DNA of 13,768 bases, taken from assembly GCF_003334335.1 (NCBI RefSeq), contig NZ_QOWQ01000061.1; one strand, given 5' to 3'. Positions 10,498-13,400 of this stretch are shown here, piece after piece (positions within the stretch are counted from its first letter, which is position 1; every line of letters begins with the position of its first letter). The DNA comes from Escherichia coli (GTDB lineage: Bacteria > Pseudomonadota > Gammaproteobacteria > Enterobacterales > Enterobacteriaceae). Below the pieces are notes generated by a model, which did no database searches, had not been told where the DNA came from, and worked only from the letters and a program-made list of their open reading frames with translations. Both the position numbers and the translations under genes were made by a program.

Positions 10498-13400
10498 TTG
10501 GAAGTAGAAATGTGGGATGGTGGCTTACAAGAACAGGAAGTATTGGCTATTGAGAAAATAAAAGCTGCTTTTTCAGTCAACGTATCTAAGCCTGACAAGC
10601 CTTTCCGTAGCGGTTCAATTAGTGAGCAGCTAAAAAGCTATGGTTTTATCGGCAATGAAATGTTCCCTTGGAAAGGTTATGCAGGTTTTCGATTTGTTGA
10701 GGCAAAAAAAGAGGGGGAATTCGATTTAGTTATTGTAACACACTGCAACGTGATCATTGTTGAACTGAAAGACTGGAACCATCAGCCTGTAACCGCACGC
10801 GGAGATACTTGGTTTAAAGGTGATAAGAACATGGGGCGCTCGCCAGTAAGCGTGACTCGTAGCAAAAAATTCATGCTGGACAAAAAACTCAAGCGTCTGG
10901 TAGACCGTTTTACGAACAAAGGCTATATCCCGATTGTTCATTTTTTTGTTGTGATGACCGGCAATGCAGATTTCAGCGCGCTGCCGGAGGAACAACGGCG
11001 CCATACGATCTCGTTAAAAGATTTCCTGAAGTTTGCCGATCGCGGGAGCTTCAATAACTATTTCAAACCGCACCCAGCTACCAAGGTTCTTAACAAGGAT
11101 TTCCATCTTTTCGATGATTTGTTCCTAGGGCCTCAGACGGCACCAAAAGCCTTGAGAGTTAATGGCTATGAAGCTAATGATATGATTTTCGAACATCCTA
11201 AAAAGGTGTATCGAGAATATCTGGCAAAATCTGAGATATCAACGAACAGCGAAGCGCTACTCAGAGTATGGAATTTTAGAAATATAACGGGAACGAAAGC
11301 GAATACCCCGGAAGGACGAGCTCAGATTGTTTCACGTGAGCGCGAAGTGTTACAGCACATCAATCACCAGAATCGTGACCTGTATAACCACTGTCTCAGG
11401 TCTTTGACGAGTTTTCAGAAAGACGAGGTGACGGCCGAGTATAGCGAAGTCTACGAAGTTCCGCCGGGTCATGTCCGGTTTAATGAGTTTATCGGAAAAT
11501 ATGGTAAGAACTTTTCTGATATGGACCGCTTGAATGTGGTGAAACTGCTCATTGCAAAGTTTAGTGATCTCCATGAGATGAAAATTGCGCACAGGGATGT
11601 CGCCGATCACAGTCTGTGGATTTCACCTTCAAAAGAAGTTGCTCTTTCGAACTTTATTTCGGCTTACCACCAGCCAGCCGGAACGGTTGGCGATTACCGT
11701 AAGCTTTTATCCGTAGGTGCAGTCCACGTAAAAGACATGCTTGATAAGGGCGAGCTTACGCCTTTTCAGCAAGATGTTCATACTCTGGGCCTTGTCGCCT
11801 GGCACTTATTTAGCGGTATGCGCATGTCGCCAAAGAGTCTGGAGAAAGTACAGGACAACATGCTAAACAGCCAGCACTGGTATTCATCTGTATTACGGGA
11901 TGCCGTTGCCGCAAAATTCACTTCTGCAACAGAATTCTTTGATGCCCTGAAACAAGCCGAACCTGCTGGCAAGGATATTCCAACATTTGATGATACTGAG
12001 CTTGACCCTTACCGACATGCTATCAATCACGCTCGTCAATACCCGGAAGACGATGGCTTTCAGTTTCAGGTCGAAACAGTCGACAAAGAAGTCTATATCT
12101 CGAAAGGAAGGCTCGTGAAGGCTTGGCTGAATGTTGGGGGACAGGGATACGATCCGTCAATTAATTTCCAGGTTCTGAAGTTTTTAAAGCAGGTTGAGCG
12201 GCTTTCTTCAGTTAAAACAACGTATCTACCTCAAATTCGTGAATTCGGTATCGCATCAAAATCATCAAGCCTATATATGGTCACGGATCAGGTACAGGGA
12301 GAAACCTGGGATAAAATAGCGGTCCCCGATGATGAAAAAATCGACCTCATTGGTAAGTTTGTCGCCGCCGTTGAGCACTTACATGGTCTGGGTGTTTCTC
12401 ACGGGGACATCCACCCTGGCAATGTGATATTTGAGACACAGAGCCGTTTGCTTTTTCTCATCGATATCCCCGATTTTTCACCGTCCGGTGACGAACCTAA
12501 AAATCACAGTTACAGCCCTGAATACATTGATAATTGTACTTCTTTTGAACGTGACAACTATGCAGTGATGAAGATGTCCTGCGAGTTGCTAGGCATGTCA
12601 TGGGGGCTGGAATCAGACATTTATCCGACAATCGCGAATGCTATCCGAGCAGAGCTGGAAGATCCGGTTTTTGGGTTTAAGGATTTAGGCCGCTTTAAAA
12701 AAGCGATAGATAGTAATGACCTGGTGCCAGAACAAGACCTGATAGAGATTACTGCAGGAAATGCCGATGAAATAATCTCTATTCTGCCTGATAACGGGCA
12801 TCTGTATGTCAAAGTTAAGTCAAATCCTAAAGCGCCAGCTGAAGTAAATGTGACTTTCTCTGGGATTGGTGGCAGTTTTACTGCGGTGTTCAACAAAGAT
12901 CAGAAGACGCTGGTTCATGGCTTCAGGCCACGGGCTCGCGTCACAATTCGTAAGCAAGATATTGATGAAAGCCAGTTCGAAATTGATACTGGCATCAAGA
13001 TTATTCCCGGCAGTCCGCAGGATCTGTCGGCGTTGACAGTATTGCTTAATGAAGAAGAATCTTTTGCGCGGGCAATCGAGTTGATTGCCGCAACTGAAGA
13101 TGTTCAGGTACAAGAGCCACTTACGCTTCAGCTAAAAGATACCTTTGCAAGGCTTGATAAGCAGACGCTTGAACCTTCTTTAAGAGAAGTGCTGGAAATC
13201 CCAACAGTGAAACTGTGGCGCGCCATTCTGGATACTGAAACAGAATCTTATCCAAACATTGAAATCAGCGGTGAAGTGGTCCCGGTTGCAGATGCTCATG
13301 GAGAGCTTCTTCTCCCTTACTCTGCTGATGTTGATCCACTCGGTGCTTTCAGAAGTAGTGATGAAGTCGAAGCCTTACAGGTCGATCAGGAAGGTGTTGA

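Follow-up and report, generated by a model that had tools for sequence, protein, structure and literature searches.

Type I Mokosh protein MkoA of Escherichia coli combines a conserved pseudokinase with a probably active kinase: analysis of an mkoA copy interrupted by IS100

We have analysed a stretch of 13,768 nucleotides (nt) of Escherichia coli DNA (contig NZ_QOWQ01000061.1, referred to below as the window), in which an open reading frame (ORF) at positions 10498-13749 of the plus strand holds the 5' part of mkoA, a gene of the type I Mokosh anti-phage defence system. A sequence-only reading of the window had proposed that this ORF encodes a nuclease-like domain fused to a pseudokinase-kinase pair, and our results agree: both kinase-like regions have the protein kinase fold, the first of them (K1) is degenerate in 118 of 118 homologues, and the second (K2) retains its catalytic set of residues in 98 of the 118. 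We consider it likely that the kinase-fold pair of this anti-phage protein consists of a regulatory pseudokinase, K1, and an active kinase, K2. The ORF translates as that reading had described, and all of its motifs were found at the residues it gave when translation is counted from the TTG codon at 10498. Residue numbers below follow this count unless they are marked RefSeq, the RefSeq numbering being lower by 4. The parts of the gene are as follows.

Positions 10498 to 13692, plus strand: mkoA, long form of Mokosh type I, 5' 64% of the gene (PADLOC match).
Positions 10510 to 11121, plus strand: NERD (PD-(D/E)xK) nuclease domain, predicted catalytic residues D76, E89 and K91 (Pfam).
Positions 11122 to 12009, plus strand: K1 pseudokinase domain, residues ~219-489, folded core at ~11152-11964 (PDB profile and AlphaFold2).
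Positions 12022 to 12684, plus strand: K2, predicted active minimal Hanks-type kinase, residues ~524-704 (Pfam and PDB profile).
Positions 12685 to 13692, plus strand: middle region of MkoA, residues 730-1065, separating K2 from the helicase (only the MkoA profile matched, at 704-1025).
Positions 13693 to 13768, no strand assigned: end of an IS100 element (IS21 family) inserted in mkoA (100% identity of 76 bases to the IS100kyp end beside istB).

Homologues were sought among 1.84 billion cluster representatives, which yielded 475 relatives (E ≤ 1e-30 for 182). The best 150 were mostly proteins of ~1600 residues spanning NERD, K1 and K2, and 6 of 6 relatives that we sampled were full-length MkoA. 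Conservation was scored over 118 representatives with a mutual identity of 50% or less, and separate alignments of K1 (A1) and K2 (A2) were built from the MkoA relatives. Word-indexed searches in which the protein or the K1 alignment served as query recovered no PglW (see below); their matches were confined to close relatives of MkoA, for the most part fragments. Searches of plasmids by tblastn likewise recovered MkoA-like genes alone.

Scanned as a single sequence, K1 gave a weak match to Pfam Pkinase (RefSeq residues 270-446, E = 0.027), and such matches at E ≤ 0.1 were obtained for 21 of 29 K1 homologues. A profile made from the 29 homologues matched 1469 distinct sequences of solved kinases in the PDB, the best being PknB/Stk1 of S. 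aureus (4eqm; E = 4.5e-18), with the alignment running from the hinge to helix αI. Single-sequence AlphaFold2 modelling of residues 1-760 was unusable, with a predicted local distance difference test (pLDDT) score of 33, and we used instead an alignment-based model of K1 alone, which had a pLDDT of 88.5, a predicted template modelling (pTM) score of 0.86 and the secondary-structure order of a classical kinase. Foldseek searches with this model matched 1984 or more PDB chains at E ≤ 0.001; the best 50 that were listed were all kinase-fold chains, including PDK1, PknB, Stk1 and Aurora, with query-normalised TM-scores of 0.52-0.61. K1 is a genuine bilobal Hanks-type kinase fold. For K2, the single-sequence Pkinase match covered RefSeq residues 577-657 at E = 9e-6, and its profile matched 1845 sequences of solved kinases, of which CDPK1 was the best (E = 5.9e-16, aligned from the β3 lysine to helix αF). 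When the two profiles were compared with each other by hhalign (97% probability, E = 1e-10), the HRD of K1 fell on the HGD of K2, the αF aspartate of one on that of the other, and K1 position 385 on D656 of K2; judged by this alignment, K1 and K2 are homologous. The profile and fold searches thus assign the kinase fold to each of the regions for which the sequence-only reading had named such a check, and the motifs on which it relied are positionally conserved across the 118 diverse homologues.

The diagnostic positions of K1 were occupied as follows.

Residue 256, position of the β3 lysine: R in 97%, K in 0 of 118.
Residue 281, αC glutamate: E in 97%.
Residues 365, 366 and 367, HRD: H in 98%, R in 79%, D in 98%; in the window, H365-R366-D367 of the catalytic-loop remnant HRDVADHS (from residue 365, nt 11590-11613, plus strand, by translation).
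Residue 369 (HRD+2), position of the catalytic-loop lysine: G or A, not K.
Residue 372 (HRD+5), position of the catalytic-loop asparagine: S in 57%, C in 16%, N in 13%; S372 in the window copy.
Residue 374 (HRD+7): W in 98%.
Residue 385, position of the DFG aspartate: G in 47%, N in 16%, S in 15%, H in 13%, D in 0 of 118; N385 in the window copy, within SNF at the DFG site (from residue 384, nt 11647-11655, plus strand, by alignment to 4eqm).
Residues 411 and 412, APE: P in 91%, E in 83%; VK in the window copy.
Residue 426, αF aspartate: D in 99%; in the window, the subdomain-IX-like DVHTLGLVAWHLFSG (at residue 426, plus strand, by translation).

In the alignment to 4eqm, position 385 lies opposite the aspartate of DFG and F386 opposite the phenylalanine. 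As read from these columns, K1 is without the residues of Mg-ATP phosphotransfer throughout the family, namely the β3 lysine, the catalytic-loop lysine and (usually) asparagine, and the DFG aspartate. The earlier description of K1, in which HRD is kept, the catalytic-loop lysine and asparagine are missing and SNF stands at the DFG site, holds for the window copy, and neither a β3 lysine nor a DFG aspartate occurs in any of the 118 homologues. The motif likened to subdomain IX was found at the αF aspartate. The APE motif, kept in 83-91% of homologues, has been lost from K1 of the window, which reads VK. Nevertheless the constraint on K1 equals or exceeds that on K2, the mean column entropies being 2.54 vs 2.72 bits, and its cleft residues R256, E281, H365, D367 and W374 are nearly invariant (97-99%).

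The corresponding positions of K2 were occupied as follows.

Residue 541, β3 lysine: K in 91%.
Residues 635, 636 and 637, HxD: H in 96%, G in 95%, D in 93%; in the window, H635-G636-D637, which with N642 form part of the catalytic loop HGDIHPGN (from residue 635, nt 12400-12423, plus strand, by translation).
Residue 642, catalytic-loop asparagine: N in 91%.
Residue 656, DFG aspartate: D in 96%; in the window, within IDIPDF (from residue 655, nt 12460-12477, plus strand, D656 being the DFG-Asp equivalent by the CDPK1 and YopO alignments).
Residue 659, second conserved acidic residue: D in 84%.
Residue 673, plus strand: SPEY (by translation).
Residue 686, αF aspartate: D in 97%.

It is K541, D637, N642 and D656 that are kept together in the 98 homologues. 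IDIPDF had been read as DFG-like, and its position holds; the equivalent of the DFG aspartate is its first aspartate, D656, which lies opposite the aspartate of DFG or IDL in the CDPK1 and YopO alignments. We also considered D659, in the DF of IDIPDF, as the DFG equivalent, and rejected it on the evidence of these alignments and of the higher conservation of D656. In domain-wise scans, K2 had its best matches in Bud32, in PD-T4-6 kinases and in the kinase domain of LanKC.

The protein that carries this pair matched the PADLOC MkoA profile PDLC03921 with E = 0 and 1212 bits, RefSeq residues 1-1061 falling on profile positions 5-1025 of 1607. The intact MkoA of E. coli NCTC86 (1652 residues, annotated as an AAA domain-containing protein) matches the profile end to end (residues 1-1648 on 5-1603 of 1607, 2205 bits), and the window copy is limited to positions 5-1025 because IS100 interrupts it. 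By these matches, the gene is mkoA in its long form, of type I Mokosh. Intact MkoA has the domain order NERD nuclease, K1, K2, middle region and Upf1-like superfamily 1 RNA helicase (COG1112); its C-terminal third matched AAA_11 (E about 5e-38 to 9e-38) and AAA_12 (5e-42) and resembles Upf1/NAM7 (E = 8e-31). The middle region had no match in Pfam or NCBIfam and contains no known domain. Downstream of mkoA in NCTC86 is a gene for a 478-residue protein matching MkoB (PDLC03923, E = 1.9e-151), a PLD nuclease. The mkoA locus was present in 273 of 5426 complete E. coli genomes (~5%).

According to the supplement of Millman et al. (2022), the type I Mokosh system of E. coli SEC470 is a verified anti-phage system whose MkoA, of 1652 residues, is labelled Kinase-Helicase. 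This long-form MkoA is of the same family as ours from end to end and has the same downstream partner, MkoB, and differs from the window copy in that the latter is interrupted at codon 1066 by IS100 and has lost its helicase. The two were 92% identical over the first 399 residues (the stretch shown) and 99% identical within K1. Divided by domain, the identity was 86% for the NERD part (10510-11121) and 99% for the K1 part (11122-11700), a mosaic that suggests either recombination or a faster evolution of the nuclease domain. A regulated sensor/effector design, as the sequence-only reading had suggested, fits a protein of this description, because it is MkoA of type I Mokosh.

What had been called a nuclease-like domain, fused to the kinase pair on its N-terminal side, is NERD. 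The Pfam NERD match in a single-sequence scan covered RefSeq residues 53-135 (E = 9e-7); the three columns that matter are conserved at 96% (D), 96% (E/D) and 96% (K), and 113 of 118 homologues have retained the whole motif D-[E/D]-K (D76...E89-x-K91). NERD is entered for Mokosh type I in the table of one review (PMC10952713). In Millman et al. (2022) the kinase part of MkoA is described merely as a serine-threonine kinase (STK) domain, with pseudokinase and kinase not separated.

The N-terminal order of MkoA is the same, at nearly equal residue positions, as that of PglW from BREX type 2 (Pgl). In S. coelicolor PglW, NERD occupies residues 12-130, an atypical kinase 195-490 and a Hanks kinase 537-704, and with the K677A mutation PglW neither autophosphorylates nor confers resistance to phage (PMC4365076, 2015). 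An analysis of 2026, which makes no mention of Mokosh, describes PglW and a subset of DndF as having a NERD nuclease of the restriction-endonuclease fold, then one kinase that is inactive and one that is active (PMC12839542). We observed that NERD of MkoA falls on positions 30-152 of the PglW profile and K1 on 198-440, in the same order, the comparison with PglW being one of profile matches and of published descriptions. The overall score of MkoA against the PglW model NF033442 was 85.8 bits, far under the cut-off of 990. The C-terminal halves differ, since that of PglW consists of winged helix-turn-helix domains (a triad) and an inactive STAND ATPase whereas that of MkoA is the Upf1-like helicase; so do the partners, which are BREX proteins for PglW and the PLD nuclease MkoB for MkoA, and there were no BREX genes among the annotated genes of the island that carries mkoA. 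A second likeness is to MAD6 of the methylation-associated defence system (MADS; NF047741), on whose profile NERD falls at 41-148 (E = 5e-9) and K1 at 183-421 (E = 6e-15), again in the same order, with a total of 110.8 bits against a cut-off of 460. The MAD6 profile has 612 positions and no helicase, and a literature search on MADS and MAD6 found nothing relevant. From the matches to both proteins, it is NERD with K1, and not K1 with K2, that is the unit common to MkoA, PglW and MAD6 in the same order.

How the pair would work can be outlined from these results. K2 would act as an active Ser/Thr kinase, like the second kinase of PglW, and K1 would be a non-catalytic regulatory or scaffold domain that couples the state of the helicase, as sensor, to the NERD nuclease, to K2 or to both. 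The helicase would sense phage nucleic acid and thereupon activate the effectors at the N-terminus, along with MkoB. It has been reported in the 2022 preprint of Millman et al. that mutation of the helicase ATP site or of the PLD active site abolishes Mokosh defence, and in a recent preprint that T4-like phages escape an E. coli Mokosh type I by DNA glucosylation and the Alt ADP-ribosyltransferase. Such an escape would accord with an effector directed at DNA, for instance NERD. In eukaryotes, an inactive kinase fold adjoining an active kinase or a nuclease serves as an allosteric switch in immunity and stress sensing. The working logic of JAK JH2-JH1, GCN2 and the plant tandem kinase resistance proteins, and of RNase L and IRE1, is possibly alike, but domain order and partners differ and we claim no relationship beyond the kinase fold.

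By analogy with PglW, K2 is probably an active Ser/Thr kinase. Several observations weigh against the assignment of an active kinase and a regulatory pseudokinase. K2 has no glycine-rich loop of the form GxGxxG, and its αC glutamate is unconserved (the best column has E in 34%, and in 43 of 118 homologues there is no glutamate within the window of positions considered); because of these two features its competence is less than certain. Some small kinases that are active are likewise without them. The earlier claim of an apparently competent K2 stands for the catalytic Lys, Asp, Asn and Asp, and does not extend to the glycine-rich loop or the αC glutamate. Further, in domain-wise scans K2 had no specific match to PglW, and the precedent of PglW carries over by analogy alone because K2 lacks a specific likeness to the second PglW kinase. 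A further case is provided by the short form of MkoA (PDLC03920), which shares the kinase-like domain, middle region and Upf1-like helicase with the long form; positions 8-1102 of its profile align from K2 onward (long-form residues 493-1593), and short MkoA proteins are thus without NERD and K1. In the short MkoA that was verified from E. coli H10407 (1215 residues), the single kinase-like domain reads IIKYW, HRHLDEN and TGFE, and both the catalytic aspartate and the DFG aspartate are absent. Kinase catalysis is, for this reason, not needed in all type I Mokosh systems, and at least one working system appears, from its sequence, to carry a pseudokinase only. Also, a domain that is no more than a scaffold does not usually keep its HRD aspartate and a pair such as R256-E281 in near-invariant form, as K1 does, and a literature search for Mokosh with kinase domain returned no match, and no experiment on either kinase domain of MkoA.

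The last-named conservation bears on a different account of K1, one that we regard as unlikely though it has more in its favour than the two that follow. Here K1 would not be dead, but would act as a sensor of ligands or as an enzyme of a non-canonical kind, working through the HRD aspartate and the R256-E281 pair, and would control the adjacent NERD domain directly; in its variants, K1 would bind nucleotide without metal, or would catalyse a reaction other than phosphotransfer. The conservation of the five cleft residues exceeds that of the catalytic residues of K2, the constraint on K1 as a whole is as strong as that on K2, and the unit shared with PglW and MAD6 contains K1 and not K2, all of which speak for this account. 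There is also a precedent in the helicase-linked DLHK pseudokinases, which keep the HRD aspartate, are without the β3 lysine and have been modelled to bind ATP without metal by way of arginines (review, PMC12599244). Against this account, K1 has neither a metal-binding Asn or Asp nor a glycine-rich loop. Moreover, the HRD+7 position contacts adenine in canonical kinases, and the bulky W374 that K1 has there suggests that its pocket may be occluded.

Doubts about K2 lead to an account that we hold to be somewhat less probable still, namely that neither domain is a working protein kinase, with K2 serving in nucleotide binding or as a structural element and defence being carried out by the helicase and the NERD and PLD nucleases alone. 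The lack in K2 of a glycine-rich loop and of a conserved αC glutamate would be in keeping with this, as would the H10407 protein, verified in defence with neither the HRD nor the DFG aspartate, and the fact that the mutants reported by Millman et al. were those of helicase and PLD only. But K541, D637, N642 and D656 are each conserved at 91-96%, in addition to their joint retention, which is hard to explain without catalysis, and the second kinase of PglW autophosphorylates. Small kinases of the Bud32 type, which are the closest NCBIfam matches of K2, are active without a canonical glycine-rich loop. The assignment of K1 as regulatory pseudokinase and K2 as active kinase remains the one we favour. 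As for chance matches in a non-kinase protein, HRD, HGD and SPE are indeed short strings and the single-sequence Pfam match of K1 is weak, but this explanation is refuted by the profile E-values against solved kinases, by the kinase-only matches among those listed for the high-confidence K1 model, and by the positional conservation over the 118 homologues.

The window copy of mkoA does not itself encode the whole of this machinery. Its protein is identical to intact NCTC86 MkoA through RefSeq residue 1061 and diverges from 1062. The ORF consists of 1065 MkoA codons followed by 18 foreign codons contributed by the IS100 tail, and its stop codon, at 13747-13749, belongs to the insertion sequence (IS). 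By itself this tail matches more than 2000 plasmids. The insertion, at 13693 (codon 1066), lies just upstream of the Walker A motif and leaves the gene without its Upf1-like helicase. The window ends inside IS100, and the position of mkoB is seen from intact strains. The copy is most likely a defence pseudogene, and probably inactive, because IS100 removes the helicase, which is essential according to Millman et al.

Other mkoA genes interrupted by IS elements were also observed: in strain 300444 by IS100 at a different site, in strain 025542-1 by IS2, in Acinetobacter lwoffii by ISAba1 and in Providencia stuartii by IS3. The carriage of mkoA may be costly.

With regard to the 5' end, TTG 10498 is preceded at 10484-10490 by a Shine-Dalgarno sequence, TAAGGAG, with a spacing of 7 nt, and the homologues begin with MEVxxWxGGL, as does the product initiated at TTG, MEVEMWDGGL; for both reasons this TTG is probably the true start of mkoA. 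ATG 10510, the start chosen by RefSeq and IMG, was rejected on the same two grounds, and these annotations are probably four codons too short.

In the window the integrase-bearing island lies beside ymdE/ycdU (1-2983), the serX region of K-12, whereas the same island lies beside clpA in NCTC86 and strain 300444; there is no tRNA gene within the window. Other features of the window are the following.

Positions 3170 to 4987, minus strand: ORF of 605 residues beside the island integrase, of low GC content (~32% vs 42-46% nearby) and hypothetical in RefSeq; it had no match in Pfam, NCBIfam or PADLOC, and is an orphan cargo gene.
Positions 5200 to 5920: degenerate remnant of an IS1 transposase, frameshifted and with an internal stop in RefSeq; its ORF at 5483-5920 matched the NCBIfam IS1 transposase model at E = 2.6e-35.
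Positions 7020 to 8463: gene of the YfjI family/DUF3987, split into overlapping ORFs at 7020-8177 and 8059-8463; the NCTC86 gene is one unbroken coding sequence of 477 residues.
Positions 9284 to 9847: inovirus-type Gp2/YagK-YfjJ gene, upstream of mkoA.
Positions ~9990 to 10325: frameshifted fragment of a TOTE conflict-system primase domain protein (annotation transferred from RefSeq).

The YfjI-family gene is probably a frameshifted pseudogene here, since across the 7 kb that align the window falls 8 nt short of the length in NCTC86. The genes at 9284-10325 are remnants of another conflict system.

Mokosh is widespread, and what has been established of its mechanism is that both helicase and PLD nuclease are required. 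MkoA was already known as a defence protein, and the layout of nuclease, pseudokinase and kinase was already known from PglW; what our analysis yields is a refined annotation and not a new kind of system. Its novelty is modest, and consists in the division of the STK domain of MkoA into NERD, a pseudokinase and a probably active kinase, in the finding that K1 combines universal degeneracy with strong conservation, and in the recognition of NERD with K1 as a shared unit. We would suggest, quite tentatively, that Mokosh, BREX type 2 and MADS share an ancient NERD-pseudokinase unit in which K1, more than an inert spacer, does the sensing or switching: its near-invariant cleft might bind a ligand or phage cue, or perform a non-canonical reaction, and so gate NERD; such gating would resemble that of the nucleases of RNase L and IRE1 by their kinase folds. 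The results name concrete residues for mutation and link three defence systems through one module.

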